Shown: positions 2,822-62,749, numbered from the stretch's first letter. The stretch is DNA of 64,000 bases from an uncultured Candidatus Binatia bacterium (GCA_965200965.1 OZ241744.1:1952001-2016000), one strand, 5' to 3'. Notes: generated by a model not told the origin, from the sequence alone. A program made the numbers and translations.

Positions 2822-4012
2822 CTAGCGCCGCACGGCCGGTGCCTCAACCCCAAGACCCCGTCCCCGCCAGGCCAGATACAACTCAAGATTGACGTACTCG
2901 TCCGCCCCGTAGGCGAGCGGTTCGGCCCGGATAGCCGTATTGCACCAGGCAAACATGCGGTGGCTGGAGCCAAGGGTCTGCCAAGTGTGGCGATAGACCG
3001 GAAAGCCGTTGATCTGCCCCTGGCTGATGACCTCACCGCGCAGGCGTTGACCGGCATATCGTTCGTGACAATGGGCGCAGGCCATGTCGAGCTGACCCCG
3101 CCGGCGCTCAAAAAACGCCCTGCCGGCCTCAAAAAACGGCTTGGCCGGCCCCTCGATATCGACCTCCAGCGGCATGCCGCGCGACTCGAAGCTGAGCAGC
3201 GCGGTCAGGGCTAGCAACTCTTCGGATTCATACGCATAGGCGACCGCCCCGAGGCGTTCTTCACGGCAGCGGTTGATCTGTTGTTCGAGATTGATCAGCC
3301 TCTTGCGACGGGCGTCAAAACGGGGAAAGCGTGCGCGTGTCCCGCGCAGGTCGCTCGCCGCATGACAGCTCACGCACGACTTCTGGCTCGGACCGTGCGG
3401 TTGTGCCCACAGCTCGCCACCGCGCTCAACCCACAACAGGCCCGGATTGCCAAAGGGGTCGTCCTGCAAGCGTCTGTTTTCCTCGGACAGATAGGTAGAG
3501 CCCGAGCGGCGGCCGTCAACGCGATACGGATGGGCGAACGGCACGGTGGCTGGCGGTGGTGGCGGGGGAGCCGGTCCGTCGGTTCGCAGGCTGAGGAGAT
3601 AGGCAAGCACATCCTCAAGCTCTTGGGCATTCAGGATCGGCTTGCCGCGGTATCGCTCAAGGACCCGGTGTAAGCCGCGGGTTGTGGCATAGGCCGGCAT
3701 GATGGTGGCGGGGTTGAAGAGCTTGGGATTGACCAGGCGTAAGCGGAGCTCAGCCGCGGAATAGCGGCTGCCGACCCCATCCAGGGGCAGGCCCAGCGTC
3801 CCGTGAAACCGGCGCTCGGGCAGCGGCATGGCGTGACAGATCACGCAGTCGCCCCGCTGGCTGTCAAGCGCAATACGCCGCCCCCGTTCCACATCGCCGG
3901 GCTGTGCGGTAGGCGCGGGCGGCATCACACTGGCGCTGTCACCGGCAAGGCCAAGGCTCAGCCCGCCCACACCGACCAAGGCGGCCAAGACGACAACGAC
4001 AGCTCTCAACAT
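2822..4012 (-). CDS. soxXA: Fused SoxX-SoxA c-type cytochrome (three CxxCH motifs)
   Basis: Signal peptide. SoxX part: GDCVICH and TIMPAY. Pro-rich linker. SoxA part: NPGLLWVERG, SCVSCH, INRCREE, CAHCH, FPVYR, WCNTAIRAEP, LELYLAWRG..APAVR. Start placed at ATG 4012. Confidence 0.85.
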   Translation of the reverse strand: MLRAVVVVLAALVGVGGLSLGLAGDSASVMPPAPTAQPGDVERGRRIALDSQRGDCVICHAMPLPERRFHGTLGLPLDGVGSRYSAAELRLRLVNPKLFNPATIMPAYATTRGLHRVLERYRGKPILNAQELEDVLAYLLSLRTDGPAPPPPPPATVPFAHPYRVDGRRSGSTYLSEENRRLQDDPFGNPGLLWVERGGELWAQPHGPSQKSCVSCHAASDLRGTRARFPRFDARRKRLINLEQQINRCREERLGAVAYAYESEELLALTALLSFESRGMPLEVDIEGPAKPFFEAGRAFFERRRGQLDMACAHCHERYAGQRLRGEVISQGQINGFPVYRHTWQTLGSSHRMFAWCNTAIRAEPLAYGADEYVNLELYLAWRGRGLGVEAPAVRR

Positions 4013-4013
4013 C

Positions 4014-5276
4014 CTAGCCAAAGGTATCAGATGTGATATTGGCGTACCACGACCGGGCATACTCGGCCTCCAGGGCACGGATCGCGTCTGGTGCATCAAG
4101 CGGACTGGTCCCGCTTGAGCTGGGCGCAATTGTGTTGTTTTCAACACGGTAGACCGCGGTAATGGAAATCGCGTAGTCAGGCGCGACCAGGCTGTAGCAG
4201 GTGTTCATCAGGACCGGCTCTGGCCGCGGCTTGCCGCGGAGTTGGGCGACAATCGCCAGCGCGCAGGCTTTGGCCTGGACATTGGCGCTGAAAGCCGACT
4301 TGGGCATGGGGTTGGCGAGGGCAGCATCGCCAATAATATGCACATCCGGGTGGACGGTTGATGCAAAACTGCGGCCTTTGATCGGACACCAGCCTGTGTC
4401 CCGGTCCAGCCCGGCAGTCCGGGCAATGGCCGCGGCCTGTTGTGGCGCAATGATATTGGCCACCGCGGGTTTATATTCCTCAAATTCGGTGCGGACGACA
4501 CCGGCCCGGCTATCAACCCCGATGACCCGTCCGCCCTGGGCCGCCGGCACCCATTCAAGCAGACCAGGATAGAAGCGCTGCCAGGCGGCCAGAAACAGGG
4601 TGTCCTTGGTGAAGCTGTCCTTAGCGTCCAGGATCAGGAGTTTTGAGTTGGGCTTAGCGCGTGTGAGGTAGTGGGCGATGAGACTCGCTCGCTCGTAGGG
4701 GCCTGGCGGACAGCGGTAAGGCGTTTCCGGGACGCTGATCACCACCAGCCCGCCATCGGGCATGGTTTGGAGTTGACGCCGCAACAGGAGCGTTTGCGGC
4801 CCGGCCTGCCAGGCGTGGGGGAAGACCTCGGCTGCCGCCCGGTCGTAGCCCTCCAGCACTCCCCAGCGCAGCCCAATACCCGGCGAGAGGACGAGTTTGT
4901 CGTAGGCCAAGGTCCGGCCGTCGGCCAGCCAGAGACGATGGCGGGCTGGATCAAGCCGGGTGGCCTGGCCGTGGATGAGCCGCATGCCGTAGCGTTCCTG
5001 GAGGGCATGGTGGCTATAGGTCAGGGAGGCAAGGTCGCGCAGACCGACCAGGGCGGCGTTGCTGAACGGACAGCTGATAAACCACTCCTCCGCGGTCACC
5101 AGGCTGACTTCCAGCCCGGGGTCGGCCTGGCGCAGGTATTTGGCGCAGGTCGACCCGCCAAAGCCGCCGCCAACCACCACGACCCGCGCCGAGGTTTTTG
5201 CTGAGGCGCGGCACCTCGGCAGCCCGGCGAGGGGCAGGCTGGCAGCGGTGCTGAGCAGCTGGCGACGGGTCAGCAT
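4014..5276 (-). CDS. soxF: Flavocytochrome c sulfide dehydrogenase flavoprotein subunit (SoxF/FccB)
   Basis: Tat signal TRRQLL, GGGFGG FAD motif, SCPFSN, YRCPPGPYER, MPKSAFSAN, NTCYS. Confidence 0.9.
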   Translation of the reverse strand: MLTRRQLLSTAASLPLAGLPRCRASAKTSARVVVVGGGFGGSTCAKYLRQADPGLEVSLVTAEEWFISCPFSNAALVGLRDLASLTYSHHALQERYGMRLIHGQATRLDPARHRLWLADGRTLAYDKLVLSPGIGLRWGVLEGYDRAAAEVFPHAWQAGPQTLLLRRQLQTMPDGGLVVISVPETPYRCPPGPYERASLIAHYLTRAKPNSKLLILDAKDSFTKDTLFLAAWQRFYPGLLEWVPAAQGGRVIGVDSRAGVVRTEFEEYKPAVANIIAPQQAAAIARTAGLDRDTGWCPIKGRSFASTVHPDVHIIGDAALANPMPKSAFSANVQAKACALAIVAQLRGKPRPEPVLMNTCYSLVAPDYAISITAVYRVENNTIAPSSSGTSPLDAPDAIRALEAEYARSWYANITSDTFG

Positions 5277-5312
5277 GAGCTTACGGCATGTCCTTGGGAG
5301 CCTGCGTACATG

Positions 5313-5630
5313 TCACGATTTGGTGAAATGGGCGGCTACGGCCTCAATATCCGCGGCGGCAAGCCCCCTGGCAATGGAGGGCATGACGGTCCCCCCGCGG
5401 CCTCCGGTCCGAAACGCCTGCATGGCCTGCCTGAAGGCGTCAGCTGACAGCCCGTCAAGCCCGGGAATCGCCCCCTGACTGCGGCCTTCAGGACCGTGGC
5501 AGACGACGCAGGCCGCGGCCAGGGCCTCGCCTCGGGCGGACGGGGGGCCTGCGCTGGCCGAACTGGCGAGCGGCAGGCCCGGGAACAGGTCCAGGATCAG
5601 GACTAGGCACAGGACCGGAAGCGGTGTCAC
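5313..5630 (-). CDS. Small monoheme cytochrome c (FccA/c553-like partner of SoxF)
   Basis: Signal peptide, CVVCH, GTVMPSIA Met ligand; GTG start overlaps the soxZ stop. Confidence 0.8.
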   Translation of the reverse strand: MTPLPVLCLVLILDLFPGLPLASSASAGPPSARGEALAAACVVCHGPEGRSQGAIPGLDGLSADAFRQAMQAFRTGGRGGTVMPSIARGLAAADIEAVAAHFTKS

Positions 5631-5950
5631 GCGCTGACCGTAATGGCGACCCGCTCGGAGGTGGTGGTGCCGTCGTCGTCTGTCCACATGAACTCCAGTT
5701 CTCCCGAAGAGTGCGCGGTGGTGAAAAACGAAAAATAGGGGTTGGCGGCAATGCCGGGAAACAGCTCGGCGTGAAAAACCGGCTGGCCGTTATACCGACA
5801 GATGAGGGTATGGACGATGTTCTTGGGAATTGTGCGGCCCACATTGTCATACCGCTGGCCGGTTTCCATAGGATGACGGATGAGGAGGCGGACCTCAAAG
5901 ACCTGCCCGCGGGTGAGCGTCCGGGGAACATGGATTCTGGCGGTGGCCAC
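5627..5950 (-). CDS. soxZ: Sulfur carrier complex protein SoxZ
   Basis: LIRHPMETG, IAANPYFSF, WTDDDG motifs. Confidence 0.9.
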   Translation of the reverse strand: MATARIHVPRTLTRGQVFEVRLLIRHPMETGQRYDNVGRTIPKNIVHTLICRYNGQPVFHAELFPGIAANPYFSFFTTAHSSGELEFMWTDDDGTTTSERVAITVSA

Positions 5951-5953
5951 TGT

Positions 5954-6418
5954 TCAGAGCCCTTCGCCGCAGGCCGCGGCAGTGACTACGACGTGTGCGG
6001 AAGCCAGCCACGCCGAGCCGTCGTTCATCTCGGCCAACGCCACTACCCGCTGTGTGCCGGCCAGCCGAATCCGGGTGCTCACCTCGGCCCGTCCGGTCTG
6101 CGGACTGAGGGAAAAGCGGGCAATGATCGGCTGGGGGTTTTTTTCAGCAAAGATATGGATACGCTTGACATGCGCCTTGGCAGTCATGGGGCTTTCGACC
6201 CGGACGCTGAGGCGTACCGAGTTGCCGCTTTCGGCCAGGGCCGGCAGGCTGAGTCTGACCCGCCCGGGGCGGGGCGGCCGCCCGCCCGTTGCCTCACGAA
6301 TCAGGGGCCGGAGCCTGTTGGGCACGGTGGCGGAGGCCGGGCGGGGGATGAGGAGCGGCACAAGCAGCAGGCCTAGCAGCCGGCGGCGGGGCAGGCGGTC
6401 AGACCAGGCGGAACTCAT
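5954..6418 (-). CDS. SoxY paralog with a non-canonical C-terminal arm (VTAAACGEGL; AACIE-arm type)
   Basis: Tat-like RRRLL, PALAESGNSV, AEKNPQP, STRIRLAGTQ; lacks GGCGG. Confidence 0.85.
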   Translation of the reverse strand: MSSAWSDRLPRRRLLGLLLVPLLIPRPASATVPNRLRPLIREATGGRPPRPGRVRLSLPALAESGNSVRLSVRVESPMTAKAHVKRIHIFAEKNPQPIIARFSLSPQTGRAEVSTRIRLAGTQRVVALAEMNDGSAWLASAHVVVTAAACGEGL

Positions 6419-8573
6419 GGCACGTGAGCGGCAGCGAGCGGATGCGTTTGCCGGTAGCGGCGAACAGCGCGTTGCACAAGGCCGGTGCCAGCGGGGCCAT
6501 GCCCGGCTCTCCGACCCCGCCCCAAAAGCCGCCGCTGGGGGCCAGGATCGTTTCGACCTTGGGCATCTCGGCAATCCGCATCATCGGATAGTTATGAAAA
6601 TTGGACTGTTCAACCCGACCGTCCCTAATGGTGATCTCGCCGTACAGGGCAGCGGTCAGCGCATACACTACGCTGCCTTCGAGCTGATCCCGCACTGAGT
6701 CGGGATTGACGACATAGCCGCAGTCAATGCCGACGAGGACCCGGTGGATGTGGAACTCGCCGGGGGCGCGCAGCGATAGCTCAATCACGGCCGCGGTATA
6801 GCTGCCGTAGGAGTCCTGTACGGCAATGCCGCGATGCACGCCCTCAGGCGCTGGCGTGTTCCAGTGTGCGGCCTTGGCTACGGCGTCAAGAATGGCCAAG
6901 TCTTTGGGGGCCTCGGCCAGGAGTTTGCGGCGGAACTGATACGGGTCCTGACCGGCCGCCTGGGCGAGTTCGTCAATAAAGCACTCCCGAAAGAAGGGGT
7001 TATGGGTATGAGCTACTGCCCGCCATGGCCCGGGCGGCACATGGGTGTTACGCATGGCGTATTCCATTCGCATATGGGGAAAGGCGTAGGGCGTGTCGGC
7101 AAAGGTCCGAACGCCGACCAGATCAACCCCGTCGCGGACGAGGCTGGGCCAGGCCTCGGCGAAAATCGACGGCTCGGCCTGACGCACAAACCAGGCCGTT
7201 GGCTGGCCCGAGGCGTCGAGGCCGGCTTTCATGCGAACGAGGGCTACCGGTCGATAGCGGCCGTGCTGGATATCCTCTTCTCTGGACCAGATCAGCTTGA
7301 CCGGGACGCCGGGCATGGTTGTGGCGATCGTAACCGCCTGGCGCACAAACTCGATAAAACGCCCCCGACGGCCAAAGCCGCCTCCTAAGTGGACTTTGTG
7401 AACCTCAACCTGATGAATCGCCACCTGGGCGGTTTCGGCGGCCACGGCTGCGGTGGCCTCGCTGTTCTGGCACGGGGCCCAGACATCGACACGGCTGGCG
7501 GCGTACAGCGCTGTGCAGTTCTGGGGTTCCATAGTGGCGTGTTCGAGGTAGGGCGCGGAGTATTCGGCCTCAACCGTCTGTGCCGCGGTGGATAAGGCGG
7601 CCTCAACATCTCCCTGCTGGCGGGAGACCGGGGCCTGTTTGAGGGCGATGCCCTCGCGCAGGAAGTCCATAATACTGGCGCTGCTGACGTTGGCGTTGTC
7701 GCCAAAATCCCACTCAATCGGCAGGGCGCGGAGCGCCTGGTGGGCGTTCCACCAGCTTTCCTTGGCCACTACAATGACCGCGTCTTCCAGGGGCAGGACT
7801 TTGAGCACCCCGCGCATGTCGGCGATTTTTTCAGCCGCGGCACTCTTCAGCCGGCCGCCAAACACCGGGCACTGGGCAATGGCGGCGTAGACCATGCCCG
7901 GCAGCCGGGTATCAATCGCAAACGCGGTCGTGCCGGTCACTTTGTCGGGTATATCGAAGCGAGCCGTGGGCCGCCCGATGAGGGTCCAGTCTGCGGGGTC
8001 TTTGAGCGGTGGGTCGGCGGGGATCGGCAGCTTGGCGGCCTCAGCCGCTACCTCGCCGAAACGCAGCCGGCGGTCTGTCCGCGGGTGGCTGATGAGGCCC
8101 TCCTCGGCCACACACTCGGCGACCGGTACGCCCCACCGTCGGGCCGCGGCGGTGGTGAGCATAATCCGGGCCGCGGCCCCGGCTTGGCGCAGATACTCGT
8201 GGCTGTCACGGATCGACCGGCTGCCTCCGGTCAGCATCGGGCCGTAGATGCGGTTGCGCCGGAGGTGTTCGCTGGTAGACGCATACTCGGCCCGGACTTT
8301 GCCCCAGTCACAGGCCATCTCTTCGGCAACCAGCAGCGGCAGGCCGGTGAAGCTGCCCTGGCCCATTTCCACCCGGGCTACCCGTATGGTGATGCTATCG
8401 TCTGGGTGAACCAGAATCCAGGCGGTGACTTCCGGGTCGGATTCACCAGCTGGGGGCGGCTGACCCTCAGCCAAAGCCCAGCCGGGAAGCGTAACTTCCA
8501 GCAGCAGGCCGCCGCCAACCGTGGCAGACCGGAGGAGAAACGAACGACGGGAGAGATTCGACGCCTGTTGCAT
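6399..8573 (-). CDS. Xanthine oxidase-family molybdopterin-binding subunit (isoquinoline 1-oxidoreductase beta/aldehyde oxidoreductase type), Tat-exported
   Basis: LSRRSFL Tat motif, EMGQG, TGGSRS, HATMEP, GGGFGRR, GGVGEPG, CNALFAATGKRIRSLP. Confidence 0.9.
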   Translation of the reverse strand: MQQASNLSRRSFLLRSATVGGGLLLEVTLPGWALAEGQPPPAGESDPEVTAWILVHPDDSITIRVARVEMGQGSFTGLPLLVAEEMACDWGKVRAEYASTSEHLRRNRIYGPMLTGGSRSIRDSHEYLRQAGAAARIMLTTAAARRWGVPVAECVAEEGLISHPRTDRRLRFGEVAAEAAKLPIPADPPLKDPADWTLIGRPTARFDIPDKVTGTTAFAIDTRLPGMVYAAIAQCPVFGGRLKSAAAEKIADMRGVLKVLPLEDAVIVVAKESWWNAHQALRALPIEWDFGDNANVSSASIMDFLREGIALKQAPVSRQQGDVEAALSTAAQTVEAEYSAPYLEHATMEPQNCTALYAASRVDVWAPCQNSEATAAVAAETAQVAIHQVEVHKVHLGGGFGRRGRFIEFVRQAVTIATTMPGVPVKLIWSREEDIQHGRYRPVALVRMKAGLDASGQPTAWFVRQAEPSIFAEAWPSLVRDGVDLVGVRTFADTPYAFPHMRMEYAMRNTHVPPGPWRAVAHTHNPFFRECFIDELAQAAGQDPYQFRRKLLAEAPKDLAILDAVAKAAHWNTPAPEGVHRGIAVQDSYGSYTAAVIELSLRAPGEFHIHRVLVGIDCGYVVNPDSVRDQLEGSVVYALTAALYGEITIRDGRVEQSNFHNYPMMRIAEMPKVETILAPSGGFWGGVGEPGMAPLAPALCNALFAATGKRIRSLPLTCHEFRLV

Positions 8574-8583
8574 TATCGCCCCC

Positions 8584-9042
8584 TCATGCCTGTGTGGCCG
8601 ACTTGGCCGCGGTATGAATGGCGGCCCGAATCCGCGCATAGGTTCCGCAGCGGCAGATATTGGTGATGAACTCGTTGATATCGGTGTCGGTCGGCTTGGG
8701 CTTTTTTGCCAGCAGGGCCGCGGCTGCCATAATCATCCCGGTCTGACAATAGCCGCACTGCGGCACCTGATGCGCAACCCAGGCCCGCTGCAAGGCGTGG
8801 CTGCCCTCTTTGGACAGCCCCTCTATGGTCGTGATGTCCTTGCCGGCAGCGATCGAGACCGGCATCACGCACGAGCGCACCGCCTCGCCGTCCAGATGGA
8901 CAGTACACGCCCCGCACAGGGACATCCCACAGCCGTACTTTGCTCCGGTCAGCCCCAGGATATCCCGCAGCACCCACAGCAGGCGCATATCGGGGCTGAT
9001 ATCGAGACGGTGTTCTGTTCCGTTTACGGTCAGCACAATCAT
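8584..9042 (-). CDS. (2Fe-2S)-binding small subunit (IorA/CoxS type)
   Basis: [31 protein letters not shown]. Confidence 0.95.
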
Positions 9043-9062
9043 AACGGTCTCCCTTGTCTTCG

Positions 9063-9695
9063 CTACATCATATGCGGGGACAGCCCTAGGTCAGCCAAGT
9101 CCTGCCAGTAGGCTTCGGCGGGGACCATGCCGATCTGGCGCTTTTTGCCGCCCATAATGACCGTCGGCACGGCGCTGATCAGGTAGCTATCAACCGCCTC
9201 AAGGCACTGCTGGCGCACGGTATCCTGAAACGCCTTGTCCTCAATATCGCGCAGGAACGCGGTCATATCCAGACCGCAGGTACGCGCGACCGCTACGAGG
9301 TTGTCCTTGTCAATGAGACTCTTGCTGTCAATGAAAAAAGCCCGAAACAGCCCGGTATGAAAGTTCAGGAAGAGGTCCTCGCCCTGACGTTGGGCGGCCA
9401 CGCCGGCTTCCAGGCCCGGCATACTCCAGCGCGGAAACTCTTCGTGCGGCCACATGGTGTAGGACAGGCTGTCCGGCTCGGCCAGGGACGAGGCGTGTTG
9501 CCAGGCATATTCCACACGGCTGCCGCTGAACTGAAACGGCCGGGGGTCGTAGTGCGGACGGAGGGCGAACGGGTGCCACTTGATGCTGACCCGTTCGCCG
9601 TAGTGCTGTTTGATCTGGTGCAGGCGCACGGCCGCTGGATAACACCAGGGTCACAGATAGTCAGAGAACTCGAGGATTTCGATTGGAGCGTCCAT
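9063..9695 (-). CDS. DsbA/FrnE-family thioredoxin-fold protein with in-frame UGA (UxxC); probable selenoprotein
   Basis: ATG at 9695 gives [17 protein letters not shown](9653-9651)[10 protein letters not shown], in frame with the 188 aa ORF; cis-Pro motif ISAVPT; hairpin directly 3' of the UGA. Confidence 0.8.
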
Positions 9696-9697
9696 GT

Positions 9698-10468
9698 CTA
9701 TTCTCTCCTCTTTTCTCGCAGCCTGGCGAGAACCGCGTCGTGGACCCGCCCGTTCGAGATCACCGCGCTGCCGCTGTAGATTGAAGGGCTGCCGGTAAAA
9801 TCAGAATAGCGCCCGCCGGCCTCAGTCACAAGCAGCTTGGTCGGTGCCACATCCCAGGGTTTGATCTCCGGTTCAAGGGCGACCTCGGCCTGGCCACAGA
9901 TCACCACGCTGTGGCCGAGCGCGTCGCCAAACCCGCGCTGGCGGGCGGTCGCATCCACCAGGGATAAAAAGGCCGGCCAGCAGGGAAGGGTCTTCAGGTC
10001 GCTCAGGCCGCCGTGGATGAGCATCGCCCGGTCTAAATGCCCAACATCTGAAACCCGGACACGCCGGCCGTTGGCAAACGCTCCCTGGCCTTGTCTTGCG
10101 TACAGCAACTCGCCGAGCGCCGGCACATACATGACCCCGACCGTGATCTGCGCGGCTTCTTCCAGGGCAATCAGGGTAGCGAAGAACGGAATGCCGCGGA
10201 TGAAGTTCCTGGTGCCGTCAATGGGGTCAATGATCCAGCGGGCGTCGTTCGCGCTTGGCTGCTCGCCTAACTCTTCGCCTAGGAAACCGTGCTCCGGGAA
10301 ACGCCGGCTCAGCAGTTCGGTGATGCACGCCTCGCACTCCCGGTCGGCTCGGGTGACGGGCGTGCGGTCGGCCTTGGTTTCAACGCTGAGGTTGGTACGG
10401 AAATAGTGCCGGGCGATCTCACCGCCGGCTTTAGCCGCCTCAATCGCCGCGGAGAGAAGGGCGTCCAT
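9698..10468 (-). CDS. Inositol monophosphatase family protein (HisN-like histidinol-phosphatase)
   Basis: PVTRAD, GEE, WIIDPIDGT, PWD motifs. Confidence 0.85.
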   Translation of the reverse strand: MDALLSAAIEAAKAGGEIARHYFRTNLSVETKADRTPVTRADRECEACITELLSRRFPEHGFLGEELGEQPSANDARWIIDPIDGTRNFIRGIPFFATLIALEEAAQITVGVMYVPALGELLYARQGQGAFANGRRVRVSDVGHLDRAMLIHGGLSDLKTLPCWPAFLSLVDATARQRGFGDALGHSVVICGQAEVALEPEIKPWDVAPTKLLVTEAGGRYSDFTGSPSIYSGSAVISNGRVHDAVLARLREKRRE

Positions 10469-12428: not shown

Positions 12429-12501
12429 ACTCCCTCCACTCTCCTTGACTTGCCAGAGAGCGGCTTTCGTTCTAATGTACAGGAGCGAAGAGGTGACACC
12501 C

Positions 12502-13224
12502 ATGCCCTCCCCCGACGAAGCCCGGCACCCAGCCTGCCTGTCTCCAGCCCCCGAGACAGAATATCTGCCAGAATCGGACGGTACACCCATGGCCGAAACC
12601 GATGTGCATCGGAACCAGATGATCGATCTACTGGACTGTCTGGAAGAGTATTACCACGCCGATCCCCGCGTCTATGTGACTGGCAATATCTTTCTCTACT
12701 TTTGCAACCACGAGGGTGAGCGTCAGTCTATCAGCCCAGATATCTTTGTGGTCCGTGGTATCGAAAAGAAGCTCCGGCGCATCTACAACCTGGACGTGGA
12801 GAAAAAGGCCCCAGATGTCGTCATTGAACTGACCTCACGCCATACCAAAGTGGAAGATCTCGGCAACAAGCGGGTCATCTATGCCGACCTAGGCGTCGCC
12901 GAGTATTTCCTATTTGATCCCCTTGACGCCTCACTAAGCCCCCAGTTGCGCGGTTTTCGTTTACAGGGCGGCGAATATATACCGATGCTCGGCACTCGGC
13001 TGACCAGTGAGGTCTTAGGCTTGGACTTGATCGTCGAAGACGATCAGTTGCGCCTGTACAATCCACGCACTGCCGAACACCTGCGTACCCACGCCGAAGC
13101 TGAGGCCGCCCGCCGAGAGGCTGAGGCCGCCCGCCGAGAGGCTGAGGCCGCCTACCGAGAGGCTGAGGCAGAAAACCTGCGCTTACGCGAAGAACTGGCG
13201 CGCCTGCGGGCGCGGCAAGGCTGA
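12502..13224 (+). CDS. Uma2 family (DUF820) PD-(D/E)XK endonuclease-like protein
   Basis: PESDGTPMAET, SPDIFVV, PDVVIELTS, GVAEYFLFDP, coiled-coil tail. Confidence 0.9.
   Translation: MPSPDEARHPACLSPAPETEYLPESDGTPMAETDVHRNQMIDLLDCLEEYYHADPRVYVTGNIFLYFCNHEGERQSISPDIFVVRGIEKKLRRIYNLDVEKKAPDVVIELTSRHTKVEDLGNKRVIYADLGVAEYFLFDPLDASLSPQLRGFRLQGGEYIPMLGTRLTSEVLGLDLIVEDDQLRLYNPRTAEHLRTHAEAEAARREAEAARREAEAAYREAEAENLRLREELARLRARQG
13099..13169 (+). repeat. 21-bp tandem repeat (about 3.4 copies) encoding AEAARRE heptads
   Basis: GCTGAGGCCGCCCGCCGAGAG twice, then a variant third copy and a partial fourth. Confidence 0.9.
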
Positions 13225-22299: not shown

Positions 22300-23757
22300 T
22301 TACAGGGCGGTGGATTGCCACAGCTCCAGGCTGCGGACTATGGCACTCTCCAGCCAGGGCAGAAACCGCGCCTCTGCCTCCTCCTGTGCCTCCTTGTAGT
22401 TGATCTGGAATACCTGATCGGTCACAGGTGTCACCGTGCCGATCTCGCGCTCTCCGTCCTCTGTTTCCACCCGCTGAAACCACGTCGCAGAACAGGCGAT
22501 CACCCCCTGGAACCCGTGACCAAGCCCGTGAAACGCAATCAACAGTTCTGTTCGGTTGGCGTTCTTCATCACCAGGCGCGCCCAGGAACGATAAGTCTGC
22601 GTATTAGCGAAGTAGTTGAGCGCCTTTGCACTCTCAATGATCTGGGAGCGAAAGTAGTGGCTGTTCCGGTCCCCGTCTGCAGCACGGTCGGCGAAAAATT
22701 CGGCGTGTTCGAGAACGCCCCGCATTTCCACGCGCAATTGTTCCGCAACCTCAGCAAGACGGCGTTCAGATTGATTGCATAAATGGGCGGCAATGGACTT
22801 GGCCGATTCCCACTCGGCGACAAGAGAATCCCTGCGCTTCGCCAACTGCTGCCGGACAGACGCAATGGTATCCTCAACACGGCGGGATATGAGGACATCT
22901 TCGGCAATGCTGAGGGCCTTTACGAACTCGGCTCTCTGGAGGCCGGCGAAGTACGCCACCAAGTCCGCCAGATTTCCGTCGTCTGCGGCTTCCAAAGCAT
23001 CAAGATAGCGCTCACGCTCGCGGTCCCTGACCACCAACGGAAACCAGCCCGCCTTGACAAAAACCAGCGTAGCGAGGGCTCGGGCAACGCGCCCATTGCC
23101 GTCCTGAAATGGGTGTATCTGGGTAAATCGGTGGTGCAACCAGGCAGCTTCTACTTCCGATGCGACATCACCGTGAGCGCCATACATCTCGATCAATCTG
23201 TCCATCTCCGAGGCAACCTGCTCTGGTGGACAGTATTCGTGCAACTCTCCATCGGGACGTTTAGGATTGTTCGGCTGAAGTTTGTAAGCGCCTCTGAGGA
23301 GGGGAACCCTTGTCTTCTTACCAGAGGAGTCAATGCCTTCCACCGTCTCCTGATGCTGCGTCATCAGAGCGTGCAGGTCCTTGACATAGCTGGTGGACAG
23401 TGAACGGTTCCCTTTGACAAAATCAAAGACAGCGTCCACTGCTCCCTTGTGATCTTCAATCATTGACACAATGGATTGTGGATTCTGCGCGCTTTCGTGT
23501 GGGATCAAGGCGGCGTTTATACCGCGATCAATCAGCAGTTCTGTCACGCCGCGATCGAGGGTATACAGCCGCTCAATCAACCCGGTCTCAACCGCCCATT
23601 CGCGCCTCAGTCGCTCATCGAATTGCCGGAAGGCGTCCCGATCTTTCAGGCGGTCGTACTGCTCGCGCCAGACTTGCGCCAGGGGACGCAACTCGGCTTG
23701 AGCGAGTTCAGCCGGTGAGCTTTCGTAGTCTTGAATTGGCACCCATCTCTTTGTCAC
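22300..23757 (-). CDS. Fic family protein with a long C-terminal extension
   Basis: Canonical HPFQDGNGRVAR; N-terminal WAVETGLIE; SD GGGAGG before GTG 23757. Confidence 0.9.
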   Translation of the reverse strand: MTKRWVPIQDYESSPAELAQAELRPLAQVWREQYDRLKDRDAFRQFDERLRREWAVETGLIERLYTLDRGVTELLIDRGINAALIPHESAQNPQSIVSMIEDHKGAVDAVFDFVKGNRSLSTSYVKDLHALMTQHQETVEGIDSSGKKTRVPLLRGAYKLQPNNPKRPDGELHEYCPPEQVASEMDRLIEMYGAHGDVASEVEAAWLHHRFTQIHPFQDGNGRVARALATLVFVKAGWFPLVVRDRERERYLDALEAADDGNLADLVAYFAGLQRAEFVKALSIAEDVLISRRVEDTIASVRQQLAKRRDSLVAEWESAKSIAAHLCNQSERRLAEVAEQLRVEMRGVLEHAEFFADRAADGDRNSHYFRSQIIESAKALNYFANTQTYRSWARLVMKNANRTELLIAFHGLGHGFQGVIACSATWFQRVETEDGEREIGTVTPVTDQVFQINYKEAQEEAEARFLPWLESAIVRSLELWQSTAL

Positions 23758-23776
23758 GGTTTCCTCCCTGGTGTCC

Positions 23777-24604
23777 CTACTCGTCCCGCGGCCGCTCGAC
23801 CGACATGCCCAGGATGTTATAGCCGCCGTCGATGTGGACAATTTCCCCGGTGATCTTGTCGGCCAGCGGGCTGCACAGAAACAGCGCCGCCCTGCCTGTG
23901 TCGGAGTTCAGAATCTCGGCCTGAAGGGGCGCAAAGCGCTTCATGTGGTCCTGCATGACGGCAAAGCCGGGGATGCTCGTGCCGGCCTTGGTGGCGGTCG
24001 GGCCGGGCGACAGGCCGTTAACCCGGATGCGGTGGGGGGCGAGGTCGTAGGCCAGATTCCTGATGATATTGTCGAGCGCCGCCTTGGTGATGCTCATCAG
24101 CTGATAGCCCGGAATGACCTTCTCGCCAGCATAATAGGTCATGGCCAGAATGCAGCCGCCGCGGTCTTTCATCAACGGGAATGCACCGCGCGCCAGCCCA
24201 ATCAGCGAGTAGGTGCTGATGTCCATCGCCAGCTGAAAATCGTCCCGCCCGATATCCAGAAAACGCCGCTGAAAAGACGCCGGCGGGGCGTAGGCGATGG
24301 AGTGAATGAGAAAATCGAGTTGCCCGAACTCCTGGCCCAACTCGGCAAACAGCCGCTCTAGCTGCTCATCCTTACTCACGTCACACTCCAGGATGAGCGG
24401 ATCGGTGAGCTGCTCCGGGATTGCGCCCAACAGGCGACGGACGGCTTTGCGCTGAATGGACAGGGCCACCCGCGCCCCGCCGTCGTTCAGCAGCTTGGCA
24501 ATCGGCCAGCCGATCGAGTGTTCGTCCAGGACGCCGGCCACCAGCGCGGTTTTGCCGGAGAAGTCAAGCAGGCTGCCGAGCGGGTTTGGTGTCGCAGCGC
24601 TCAT
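23777..24604 (-). CDS. fabI: Enoyl-ACP reductase FabI
   Basis: SIGW, IHSIAYA, MTYY, Y..M...KAAL, RVNGLSPGP. Confidence 0.88.
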   Translation of the reverse strand: MSAATPNPLGSLLDFSGKTALVAGVLDEHSIGWPIAKLLNDGGARVALSIQRKAVRRLLGAIPEQLTDPLILECDVSKDEQLERLFAELGQEFGQLDFLIHSIAYAPPASFQRRFLDIGRDDFQLAMDISTYSLIGLARGAFPLMKDRGGCILAMTYYAGEKVIPGYQLMSITKAALDNIIRNLAYDLAPHRIRVNGLSPGPTATKAGTSIPGFAVMQDHMKRFAPLQAEILNSDTGRAALFLCSPLADKITGEIVHIDGGYNILGMSVERPRDE

Positions 24605-60023: not shown

Positions 60024-61700
60024 ATGTCCGCCCTTTCCATGACCGAAAAATTGCGGGTTCTGCTACGCCGCCCGCAGCCCAGCCTAGTCCTTGGAGCCCA
60101 CGATGCGCTCTCCGCCAAGTTGGCCGGAGAAGCCGGTTTTGATGCGATCTGGGCGAGTGGTTTTGGTATTTCTGCGGTAAGCGCCCTCCCTGACGCCAAT
60201 ATCCTCACCATGAGCGAGACGCTCGACGCGGTCCGCCGCATGAGCAACGCGGTCAACATCCCGGTCATTGCCGACTGCGATAACGGCTTTGGTAACGCTA
60301 TTAACGTCATCCGCACAGTCGCCGAATACGAGCGGGCGGGCGTCGCCGGACTGTGCATTGAAGACAATATCTTTCCGAAACGGTGTAGCTTTTACGCTGG
60401 GGTCCGACGCGAGTTGGTTCCCGTTGATGAGCATACTCGCAAAATTCAGGCCGCCAAAGCGGCTCAGAAAGATCCGAATTTTGTAGTGATCGCCCGCACC
60501 GAGGCCTTAATTGCCGGCTGGGGCAAACACGAAGCGCTCAAGCGTGCCGGGATCTACGCTGAAGCCGGGGCCGACGCCATCCTGGTCCATTCCAAGGCGA
60601 CAAACTTTGAAGAACTCCAAGATTTTACCGCCGCCTGGGACAACCCCTGCCCCTTGGTGTGCGTCCCAACGACATACGCCGACACCACCGTCGCCGAGCT
60701 GGCGACAGCCGGCTTCAAGCTGGTCATCTTTGCCAACCAAGTCTTACGAGCGGCAGTCAGTGCCATGCGCCACGCTCTGGCCAGCCTGAAGGCCGGGGGC
60801 CGGCCTGCCGCGGTCAATGATCGTATTGCCAGCCTGCCCGAAATATATGAGTTGGTCGGTCTCCCGGAGTTGCAGGCCAATGAGCAGAAATTCCTGGTGC
60901 CGGACGGTCACCGAGTAACGGCCATTATTATCGCCGCCGGCTTTGAAGAAACCTTGCTGCCGCTTATCGAAGATCGTCCCAAGGCGATGCTGGAGATCAA
61001 AGGCCGGACGATTCTTGAGCACCAGATCAGCGCCCTGAACGCCTGTGGGGTGAAAGATATCGTCGTCGTGCGTGGCTACCAGAAAGAGCAGATCAATCTG
61101 CCCAATATCCGTTACTACGACAACGACGCGTTTCTCGACACCGGAGAGTTAAGCTCGCTGTTTCTGGCCGAGGCGGAAATGTCGGGGCCGTTTCTGTTTC
61201 TGTACTCCGATATTATCTTCGATCCGACCATCGTCGAAAAACTGTTGAAGTCGCAGGCCGATATCAGCATTGTGGTTGATCGGGCGTGGAACGATCAGCC
61301 CCGCTCGGCCGAAGAAATCCAGGCCAATAAGCCGGACTTGGTCATCACCCACCAGCCGCCCCAGACCGGCTATCGCTTTCTGCCCACAACAGAAGGCACG
61401 GCGCTGGCGCGTATTGGCCGAAACTTGGCTGCCCAAGACGCGGATGGCGAGTTTATTGGCCTAGCCATGTTTTCCGAGGCGGGTGCCCAACTCTTGCGCC
61501 AGACCTGTCACACGGCCCGCGAACGGTCTCATACCAGCCGCTTTCACGAAGCAGACGCGCTCCAACAGGCCGCTTTTACCGACATATTGCAGGAACTAGT
61601 CAACCACGGCCATCACGTCGCGTGTGTGGATATCTATAAGGGCTGGCTGGAGATTGATACATTTGAGGATTATCGCCGGGCGTGGGCGAAAATGAAATAA
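60024..61700 (+). CDS. PEP mutase/ICL-family enzyme fused to a C-terminal nucleotidyltransferase (PntC/LicC-like)
   Basis: GAHDALSA, WASGF, DCDNGFG, EDNIFPKRCS, ARTEALIAG, LVHSK, FANQ; then IIAAG..RPK.ML, YSDI, GEFIG, WLEIDT. Confidence 0.85.
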   Translation: MSALSMTEKLRVLLRRPQPSLVLGAHDALSAKLAGEAGFDAIWASGFGISAVSALPDANILTMSETLDAVRRMSNAVNIPVIADCDNGFGNAINVIRTVAEYERAGVAGLCIEDNIFPKRCSFYAGVRRELVPVDEHTRKIQAAKAAQKDPNFVVIARTEALIAGWGKHEALKRAGIYAEAGADAILVHSKATNFEELQDFTAAWDNPCPLVCVPTTYADTTVAELATAGFKLVIFANQVLRAAVSAMRHALASLKAGGRPAAVNDRIASLPEIYELVGLPELQANEQKFLVPDGHRVTAIIIAAGFEETLLPLIEDRPKAMLEIKGRTILEHQISALNACGVKDIVVVRGYQKEQINLPNIRYYDNDAFLDTGELSSLFLAEAEMSGPFLFLYSDIIFDPTIVEKLLKSQADISIVVDRAWNDQPRSAEEIQANKPDLVITHQPPQTGYRFLPTTEGTALARIGRNLAAQDADGEFIGLAMFSEAGAQLLRQTCHTARERSHTSRFHEADALQQAAFTDILQELVNHGHHVACVDIYKGWLEIDTFEDYRRAWAKMK

Positions 61701-62749
61701 AAAGGTACAACTTTGCGCACGAAGACAGTCCGGGCGGGCGCTATGACCTGGAGTGTTTCCGATACGGATGGCGGACGATGGAGCTTGCTCTCAAAAAAAT
61801 TGATCAGATGGTTCAGGACGAATACGCGTTTTTTGTCCACAAAAAACAGGGCTGGAGTTTGACGCGTGGCCCCCAGGACCTGGAGCTTGTAGCGCACGCG
61901 CTGCGGGTTGTCCTGCACGCCCACACGACCCCAGATTTTGTAGACGACTATCTCGCCCTGGTTTCCTGCCAAGCGCGGGATGGGGGTTGGAGTCCATTTT
62001 CGACCGACCGAGAGAGCACGGTGTGGGTCTCGGCCTTTTGCGGACTGATGCTGATTCGGGGCAACCGTTTTTTGCAGCACAATCGTCTCAGTCGGGCCGT
62101 GCAGAGAGCGATTGATTATTTTCTTGACACCCAACACGCCGACGGTCGGTGGGTTGATCCAAGCTGGGCGGACCTCGATACCACTAGCCATCCGGTCAGC
62201 TTCTTCAACGTAGTCATGGCTTTGGGAGAGCCCTATCGATGCTCCGAAGTCGTCCCAGCTTGGCGAAAGGGAGCGCAGTTCATTCTCGACCATCAAGGCG
62301 CAGACGGGGGCTGGTATGACGAAGAATTCCATCCCTCGGGGGTTGAGATCACCGCCCATCTTATTCAAGACGCCCTGATTGCCGACTTGGCTATGAACAC
62401 CCAGCTCAGTGGTGTACGCGAGGCATGCATCAAAGGAGTCCACAAGCTGTACGAATGGCAGGCCGCAGACGGGTCCTGGGACGGGGAAAATGTTGACCAC
62501 AGCATGGACTGTACCCGGTCTTTGATGGTCGTGACCCGTTTGCTAGGGGACGCCCACGGACACGAGACTATTGTGCGCGGCCTGGACTGGATTCTCGCCA
62601 ACAAGAATCCCAACGGTTGGGGCGACTTCCCCAAGCTGGAGACCAACCTGGAGCGGACCTGCGACGGCATTGATACCCTGTTGAAATACAAAGCCTACTG
62701 CAATCCAGACCCCCGGGCGGTCGTTCGGCTATGGGGCTATATCCCCTAG
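61682..62749 (+). CDS. Prenyltransferase/squalene oxidase repeat (alpha-barrel) protein
   Basis: Repeated Q..DG.W motifs (QARDGGW, QHADGRW, QGADGGW, QAADGSW, NPNGWG). Confidence 0.8.
   Translation: MGENEIKRYNFAHEDSPGGRYDLECFRYGWRTMELALKKIDQMVQDEYAFFVHKKQGWSLTRGPQDLELVAHALRVVLHAHTTPDFVDDYLALVSCQARDGGWSPFSTDRESTVWVSAFCGLMLIRGNRFLQHNRLSRAVQRAIDYFLDTQHADGRWVDPSWADLDTTSHPVSFFNVVMALGEPYRCSEVVPAWRKGAQFILDHQGADGGWYDEEFHPSGVEITAHLIQDALIADLAMNTQLSGVREACIKGVHKLYEWQAADGSWDGENVDHSMDCTRSLMVVTRLLGDAHGHETIVRGLDWILANKNPNGWGDFPKLETNLERTCDGIDTLLKYKAYCNPDPRAVVRLWGYIP

Follow-up and report, generated by a model that had tools for sequence, protein, structure and literature searches.

A predicted variant of the Sox sulfur carrier system linked to a dedicated clade of xanthine oxidase-family molybdenum enzymes in an uncultured Candidatus Binatia bacterium

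We analysed a 64,000-nucleotide stretch of DNA (the window) from an uncultured Candidatus Binatia bacterium (GCA_965200965.1 OZ241744.1:1952001-2016000), in which a xanthine oxidase-family molybdenum (Mo) enzyme, IorAB, is encoded beside a Sox sulfur carrier with a non-canonical arm, SoxY'Z, and beside SoxXA, SoxF and a cytochrome c. We found that the conserved unit consists of seven genes, iorA-iorB-soxY'-soxZ-cytochrome c-soxF-soxXA, and not of the nine given in a preliminary description of this DNA. Judged from its sequences, this unit is real and widespread, and we take it as a predicted variant of the Sox carrier system with a dedicated clade of Mo enzymes at its centre. Functional coupling of the Mo enzyme to the carrier module is very probable, and a flow of sulfur from the carrier to the enzyme is somewhat favoured. 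The specific reading that we prefer, in which the loading proteins would charge SoxY' and SoxY' would renew the Mo=S ligand of IorAB, has a probability of about 0.4.

Protein families were called with Pfam models and with NCBIfam models read against their cut-offs, and locus counts come from a SoxY' alignment scan of GTDB genomes in which the best 80 of 299 relatives were kept. We found that the Mo subunit adjoins SoxY' in 65 of the 74 loci with a SoxY that lacks the GGCG arm (Binatia, Alpha- and Betaproteobacteria), and that no Mo gene stands beside the SoxY of the six loci with a GGCG arm. Nine SoxY' loci are without the Mo subunit. Six of them are on contigs that are short or cut at an end; of the three with full flanks, two belong to genomes that have a Mo subunit with the clade signature elsewhere, and the third belongs to genome G265, discussed below. 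Reciprocally, the Mo subunit alone was searched against two order-level samples of 151 genomes, and the top matches were extended; matches with internal stops, contig-cut matches and duplicates were excluded, and lower-ranked matches were partly fetched. Among the 81 intact Mo subunits, sox genes lie within 7 kb of 34 of the 40 best-scoring compared to 0 of the 41 lower-scoring, 12 of which had only ~1.5 kb of flank. Hence, the link between SoxY' and IorAB, which the preliminary description had proposed to survey, is strongly conserved in both directions.

The order of the genes varies by lineage (iorAB-Y-Z-c-F-XA in Binatia, iorAB-(c)-F-X-Y-Z-A in Alphaproteobacteria and iorAB-X-Y-Z-A-(c-F) in Betaproteobacteria), and the iorA gene is directly upstream of the Mo subunit gene in all loci whose contig extends so far. 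In Neorhizobium galegae and Methylobacterium sp. NMS14P, the same block is on plasmid records, with the Mo slot unannotated in N. galegae. One locus (L062:3197-11664) has tandem modules, iorAB-soxY'Z followed by iorAB-soxXY'ZA. In a sister genus (18-21 loci, such as L004:586-7329) and in this one Binatia lineage only, genes for hydantoinase/caprolactamase-like A and B proteins, an SDR protein and a copper amine oxidase are directly upstream of iorA. On pSymA of Sinorhizobium meliloti (L239:7848-10289), soxY and soxZ are followed by genes for a cytochrome c and a flavoprotein, and the annotation shows neither soxXA nor a Mo enzyme within 8 kb of this block.

A shorter, four-gene form, iorA-iorB-soxY'-soxZ, was found in 14 genomes, and in 12 of these neither soxXA nor soxF follows over a downstream flank of 6 kb or more. 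Hence, the carrier and the Mo enzyme form the core of the module. Its boundaries are fixed by a congener (G025, 99% complete) in which the seven-gene block is gone; no SoxY' or Mo subunit is found anywhere in that genome, and ~0.7 kb separates the downstream ABC genes from a selenoprotein gene, which in the window lies directly upstream of iorA. Since the selenoprotein gene was kept where the block was lost, this genome also removes a reading of the module based on selenium.

The Mo enzymes of the module form a clade of their own. In a quick IQ-TREE tree of 119 rows (near-identical Binatia rows were thinned from 144), all 72 sox-linked Mo subunits fall in one clade of 78 rows (SH-aLRT 99). The Mo subunit of the window retains the motifs EMGQG, GGGFGRR and GEP, including the catalytic glutamate, and the MoCo-binding domains, the 2x[2Fe-2S] partner and the family fold are all present. 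Its closest solved chain is 8gy3_C both by sequence (E 6e-69) and by fold (TM 0.88, 27% identity, compared from an AlphaFold model with pLDDT 90.5). A Mo=S sulfido ligand and hydroxylase activity are predicted for IorAB, as expected from the family. Near-invariant residues specific to the clade include E48, R64, R67, R106, R108, N370, E372, M507-R508-N509 and, just before GEP, F683-W684; by xanthine oxidase numbering rather than by coordinates, these may sit at the substrate funnel. IorA has no signal peptide and is likely exported together with the Mo subunit. A candidate IorB-SoxY fusion (P0124) was rejected; its similarity to the Mo subunit ends at residue 416, and the rest of this single record resembles frameshifted read-through.

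The preliminary description had argued that the genes do not encode ordinary thiosulfate oxidation and that the genome should be searched for soxB, soxC and soxD. We found no match for soxB in the whole host genome, which is one 3.62 Mb contig (completeness 99.3%, contamination 5.7%), and nothing over the cut-off for soxC; the weak soxC match is MsrP, which with one short protein makes up the two sulfite oxidase-family matches. For SoxD, a heuristic list of CxxCH proteins in the genome gave no obvious candidate, and no separate SoxD search was made. In addition, soxB is over cut-off in 0 of 38 genomes of the host family and in 0 of 251 Binatia genomes, and SoxY' is kept in 29 of the 38. Hence, the canonical pathway is not rebuilt from other loci, and the argument against ordinary thiosulfate oxidation stands; from its gene complement, the module is placed outside the canonical Sox pathway. 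Among other enzymes looked for in the host genome, methanethiol oxidase/SBP56 has no match, and the DMSO reductase family has five matches (four genes), namely FDH, NuoG, a twin-arginine protein in a multiheme cluster (candidate ActB) and one other protein.

Among 34 proteobacterial hosts, many of which are metagenome-assembled genomes (MAGs) of unstated completeness, soxB is over cut-off in 21, split in 1 and not found in 12, a pattern by which SoxB is dispensable for the module. The cluster includes soxF in 12 of the 12 soxB-less genomes compared to 12 of the 22 others (21 with soxB, 1 split). In comparison, SoxA is present, in cis or in trans, in all 35 genomes with a Mo subunit of the clade (by score), relative to 48 of 116 out-of-clade genomes; this sample is centred on Burkholderiales, and its baseline includes the unpublished G473 as one SoxA-negative row. 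For 18 clade genomes there is no soxA beside the Mo gene, and all 18 have SoxA elsewhere; 16 of the 20 SoxA loci covered, out of 30, have a SoxY with a GGCG arm in their 1.5 kb flank. Hence, SoxXA of the canonical type is probably enough for the enzyme, and inorganic sulfur is the probable cargo.

We found that SoxY' differs from true SoxY at its arm. The best of three SoxY models is TIGR04487 ('SoxY-related AACIE arm protein'), with 164.6 bits, just below the cut-off of 172, and the arm reads AACGE; the true SoxY model TIGR04488 gives 105 bits (cut-off 125), and there is no GGCG(G) arm. The TIGR04487 cut-off is passed by 1 of the 51 Binatia genomes with a match and by two linked proteobacterial copies. 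All 76 rows of the alignment, which had been selected for a C-terminal cysteine, have the arm cysteine. In the four-gene form, the SoxY arms read SGCG, TGCG and ACGG, and this SoxY clusters, though weakly (127 columns), with canonical SoxY and not with the AAC type, a hint that carriers were recruited more than once. Two alphaproteobacterial MAGs encode fused SoxY-SoxZ proteins with an internal GGCG arm (P0122, P0125).

The catalytic cysteines and heme ligands of the other Sox proteins are conserved. SoxXA has structural matches 1h31_A and 2c1d, and a SoxX-SoxA fusion is the rule in Binatia-type loci (34 of 35) but is absent from proteobacterial ones (0 of 35). The heme motifs of SoxA are kept, as are its ligand cysteine in 69 of 70 rows and the methionine ligand of SoxX in 71 of 71. 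Four residues before the catalytic cysteine of SoxA, the position of TsdA Arg119, the window has Met, as do 34 of the 36 Binatia-type rows, and all 34 proteobacterial rows have Arg; the second thiosulfate-site arginine (Arg232-type) is retained in the window. A passage of PMC4423706 describes the arginine four before the catalytic cysteine as invariant and thiosulfate-coordinating. Hence, the host SoxA probably handles sulfide or sulfane rather than thiosulfate. SoxF has all the marks of flavocytochrome c sulfide dehydrogenase (FCSD) proteins (the domains, the two active-site cysteines and a neighbouring cytochrome c), and its closest structure is 5n1t_A (E 8.6e-146). Both cysteine motifs are found in 52 of 61 homologues by a strict pattern, and 6 more have variants. 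The cytochrome c gene is usually directly upstream of soxF, and its monoheme product is likely the cytochrome subunit of flavocytochrome c.

A cluster of this kind has been noted before, so the preliminary description went too far in calling the system undescribed. In Starkeya novella, according to passages of PMC3797975, a second cluster soxX2Y2Z2A2F2 (Snov_1982-1977) lies with a xanthine oxidase-family Mo enzyme (Snov_1975/1976), for which those passages give no function; an NCBIfam model for the SoxY paralog also exists. By the description in that paper, the gene content matches ours, and the cluster is without SoxB and SoxCD. A complete canonical cluster is present in S. novella as well, and the authors suggest that the second may lack functional significance under their conditions (passages of PMC3797975). 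In contrast, the module here is the only Sox machinery of its host, its SoxX and SoxA are fused, and its SoxA is without the -4 Arg. In the literature searched, with some subscription articles outside reach, we found no functional study of the module, and only PMC3797975 mentions the cluster; the four Snov locus tags had no match in the searchable supplements of that paper, and no 'sox' passage was found in the S. novella genome paper. The genes bll2737-bll2736, which may belong to such a module, are an Irr-site operon according to a passage of PMC1698941, and the cited part of PMC2864759 concerns a canonical soxB cluster.

Relative to the canonical Sox system of Paracoccus and Rhodovulum, the module shares the SoxYZ fold with its arm cysteine, a diheme SoxA with a cysteine ligand plus SoxX, and SoxF with its cytochrome c. 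It differs in being without the GGCGG arm, SoxB and SoxCD, and its Mo enzyme is of the xanthine oxidase rather than the sulfite oxidase family. The large subunit of the membrane-bound aldehyde dehydrogenase AldFGH (8GY3) and the IorAB hydroxylases likewise combine a twin-arginine Mo subunit with a 2Fe-2S subunit and are without a flavin adenine dinucleotide subunit; unlike AldFGH, the window enzyme (Mo subunit ~27% identical) belongs to a separate clade, has no multiheme membrane cytochrome and is linked to SoxYZ.

We propose that SoxF with its cytochrome c, together with SoxXA, would oxidatively load sulfane sulfur derived from sulfide onto the arm cysteine of SoxY' in the periplasm. By contact with IorAB, the SoxY' arm would then deliver this sulfur to the Mo centre, where it would renew the Mo=S ligand after occasional loss or, if the enzyme passes sulfur to its substrate, at each turnover. 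The Mo enzyme would thereby be the unloading enzyme that replaces SoxB and SoxCD, and the altered SoxY' arm may keep the cargo from SoxB and SoxCD in hosts with both systems. SoxXA and FCSD proteins are oxidative sulfur loaders, and all partners of the carrier besides IorAB are such loaders or their cytochrome; a labile Mo=S ligand is characteristic of the xanthine oxidase family. According to a passage of PMC5336275, the Sox carrier works as SoxYZ-S-sulfane. For the metallopterin-dependent ergothioneine synthase MES, a mechanistic analogue and not a homologue, which has a fused cysteine desulfurase and occurs in anaerobes, a protein persulfide has been proposed to resulfurise the metallopterin in each cycle (passages of PMC9516567). 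Together, the loader partners, the labile Mo=S, the MES precedent and the position of the Mo enzyme as the sole candidate unloader in the cluster point to delivery from carrier to Mo. The preliminary description had offered, as its second option, that the Sox module maintains the Mo-sulfido ligand; this option comes close to the delivery of sulfur proposed here.

Several points weigh against delivery to the Mo centre. MES is of the DMSO reductase family and not of the xanthine oxidase family. The host genome has XdhC and a MocA-like gene, so the first sulfuration needs no Sox protein, and other exported family members (PaoABC, AldFGH) are not known to depend on a periplasmic sulfur donor. The near-canonical arms of the four-gene form weaken the argument that the arm insulates its cargo. 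As for the linkage, six of the 78 rows of the clade are without a neighbouring sox gene (the flank is <2.5 kb in 3 of them), one genome of unstated completeness (G265) has SoxXY'ZA genes and yet no Mo match at E 1e-100, and, since related genomes are not independent, the significance that Fisher p values give to co-occurrence is overstated.

In an unlikely alternative, the Mo enzyme would oxidise arm-bound sulfane to sulfite, thiosulfate or sulfate without SoxB or SoxCD, for detoxification or energy. This would suit the host family, in which the module is the only Sox machinery (each Sox gene is single-copy in the host genome, and SoxY' is its only SoxY), and the constant presence of soxF in cis where soxB is missing; in addition, the invariant clade residues R64, R67, R106, R108 and R508 could bind an oxyanion, with their place in the channel presumed from the same numbering. 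However, no sulfur-oxidising chemistry is known in the xanthine oxidase family, and the 21 proteobacterial hosts with soxB over cut-off already have an enzyme of the canonical route. The S. novella cluster, moreover, is barely expressed on thiosulfate, glucose or methanol, according to passages of PMC3797975, in which sulfide does not appear as a condition.

The main idea of the preliminary description reverses the flow and survives as an unlikely rival: IorAB would oxidise or desulfurise an organosulfur compound (a thione, thiol heterocycle or thioaldehyde), and SoxY'Z with SoxXA and SoxF would capture the released sulfur and dispose of it. The retained family fold with its GEP glutamate fits such an enzyme, and most of the hosts are heterotrophic or sponge-associated. 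Sulfur transfer of the MES type can run both ways (passages of PMC9516567), and, since Binatia SoxA has lost the arginine that coordinates thiosulfate according to PMC4423706, the cargo may not be thiosulfate. Against capture of this kind, clustering of flanking genes from 89 loci gave no transporter or regulator common across taxa beside the module, and no catabolic gene is conserved there. The captured sulfur would also need an exit, which is not encoded where SoxB and SoxCD are absent, and a separate carrier would be of little use to hosts that have full Sox.

It is improbable that the two halves are uncoupled, that is, that an ordinary periplasmic aldehyde or heterocycle oxidoreductase and a sulfide-scavenging remnant of Sox only share their regulation and transfer, and perhaps cytochromes as electron acceptors. 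The six Mo subunits of the clade that stand alone would agree with this, as would the 21 loci of the one sister-genus lineage in which the gene just before iorA encodes a copper amine oxidase, an enzyme that makes aldehydes. However, the linkage is reciprocal and holds through several gene orders and three major lineages, the four-gene unit persists without a cytochrome, the module is lost as a block, and the (weak) grouping of four-gene SoxY with the canonical type hints that carriers were recruited repeatedly. Least probable is an organic thiol cargo, which SoxXA would join to SoxY' as a mixed disulfide for the Mo enzyme to oxidise the tethered carbon chain. The altered arm with its acidic tail, the altered SoxA pocket and the existence of SoxYZ-like carriers with quinoprotein dehydrogenases (from the name of model TIGR04557) would suit it; however, 18 genomes apparently use the Mo enzyme with canonical SoxXA only, and SoxF, a sulfide dehydrogenase type, would have no clear role.

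If sulfur does pass from SoxY' to IorAB, the module would be a branch of the Sox carrier system that works without SoxB and SoxCD; it is widespread among Proteobacteria of soil and, in a sponge-associated family of Binatia, is the only Sox machinery present. The xanthine oxidase family would then gain new sulfur chemistry, and the duplicate sox genes left unexplained in S. novella would have a function. We regard it as possible, though doubtful, that the xanthine oxidase family has in this clade its first sulfur-atom transferase or sulfane oxidase, an enzyme that would swap sulfur between the SoxYZ arm and Mo=S at each turnover. In such genomes, annotation of soxA, soxX, soxY and soxZ is no proof of thiosulfate oxidation. 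Cultured, non-pathogenic strains carry the module (N. galegae, Methylobacterium sp. NMS14P, Pseudoduganella flava and Hyphomonas polymorpha), with soxB not found in some; hence, the question is directly testable.

The two further genes of the preliminary description, for an IMPase-family protein and a selenoprotein, are passengers; together they flank the module in 3 of 80 loci, and both are retained in G025. The selenoprotein is genuine. Its in-frame TGA gives a U-P-W-C motif, the TGA is at the first cysteine codon of CxxC in 30 of 30 selenoprotein loci, the host genome has selA (over cut-off) and tRNA-Sec, and 36 of 38 family genomes have the protein. Folds after the UGA were no better than those of shuffles (z -1.1 to +0.8), and no selenocysteine insertion sequence hairpin stood out. 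It is nevertheless a bystander to the module; we rejected the proposed role in recycling sulfur or selenium because the protein starts without a signal peptide, remains where the module is lost, and is not next to SoxY' in any of the 23 genomes from outside the genus in which both occur (in 14 they share a contig but are at least 0.5 Mb apart, in 9 they are on different contigs). Two rhodanese-domain genes of the host genome (G000:C1 ~1854700-1855500 and 1483700-1484100) have an in-frame TGA at or near the active-site cysteine and are likely further selenoproteins.

Table 1. Genes of the window at and beside the Mo enzyme-Sox module
Gene or product	Position	Strand	Remarks
IMPase-family gene (PF00459)	9698..10468	-	Best NCBIfam model HisN, below cut-off; passenger
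DsbA/thioredoxin-fold selenoprotein, UxxC	9063..9695	-	DSBA PF01323; genuine; passenger
iorA, IorA-type 2x[2Fe-2S] subunit	8584..9042	-	Pfam Fer2 + Fer2_2
iorB, xanthine oxidase-family Mo subunit, IorB/AldH type, 724 aa	6399..8573	-	MoCoBD_1/2; twin-arginine motif
soxY', carrier with non-canonical arm TAAACGEGL	5954..6418	-	SoxY PF13501; best model TIGR04487
soxZ	5627..5950	-	TIGR04490 91.3 bits, cut-off 76
Monoheme cytochrome c	5313..5630	-	CxxCH, PF00034
soxF, FCSD flavoprotein	4014..5276	-	FCSD domains; twin-arginine motif
soxXA, fused SoxX-SoxA, three CxxCH, Pro-rich linker	2822..4012	-	TIGR04484 + TIGR04485 over cut-off

All nine co-oriented open reading frames of the preliminary description were recovered across 2822-10468 (Table 1), spaced from the IMPase gene to soxXA by 2, 20, 10, -20, 3, -4, 36 and 1 bp, with a 20 bp overlap of soxY' and the Mo gene. 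This tight spacing is the sole basis for the earlier claim of one operon and suggests that the module genes are co-transcribed; the first two genes, IMPase and selenoprotein, are outside the conserved unit. A promoter scan gave 6 weak sites compared to 2.3 expected, one of them directly upstream of iorA (9/12 matches), and was not counted as evidence. The twin-arginine signals described earlier for the Mo subunit, SoxF and SoxY' are present as motifs read by eye, without a predictor (SRRSFL, TRRQLL and PRRRLL, respectively), many SoxY' homologues have an SRRxFL motif, and export of these proteins would follow from such signals. The loci nearest to the window module bear the label Ca. Binatia, and 85-95% of the words of the region were found in four runs of one study labelled sponge metagenome. 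Seven loci (L005, L011, L012, L020, L031, L039 and L040) are titled Enterobacteriaceae, Klebsiella pneumoniae or Poriferisodalis and have Binatia-type sequence and gene order, so their labels or bins are probably wrong.

Elsewhere in the window, two short stretches resembling open reading frames lie on the plus strand just beyond the soxXA stop (2286-2700); by impression they resemble a small antitoxin/RelE-type pair or its remnant, with no Pfam match at E 1e-6. A Uma2-family endonuclease-like gene (12445-13224) and a Fic-domain gene (22300-23841) lie amid housekeeping genes. A lower-GC region (58470-62749) has a branched-chain polyamine synthase-like gene, a gene for PEP mutase fused to an NTP-transferase domain and a prenyltransferase/cyclase-fold gene, and may be a phosphonate locus.

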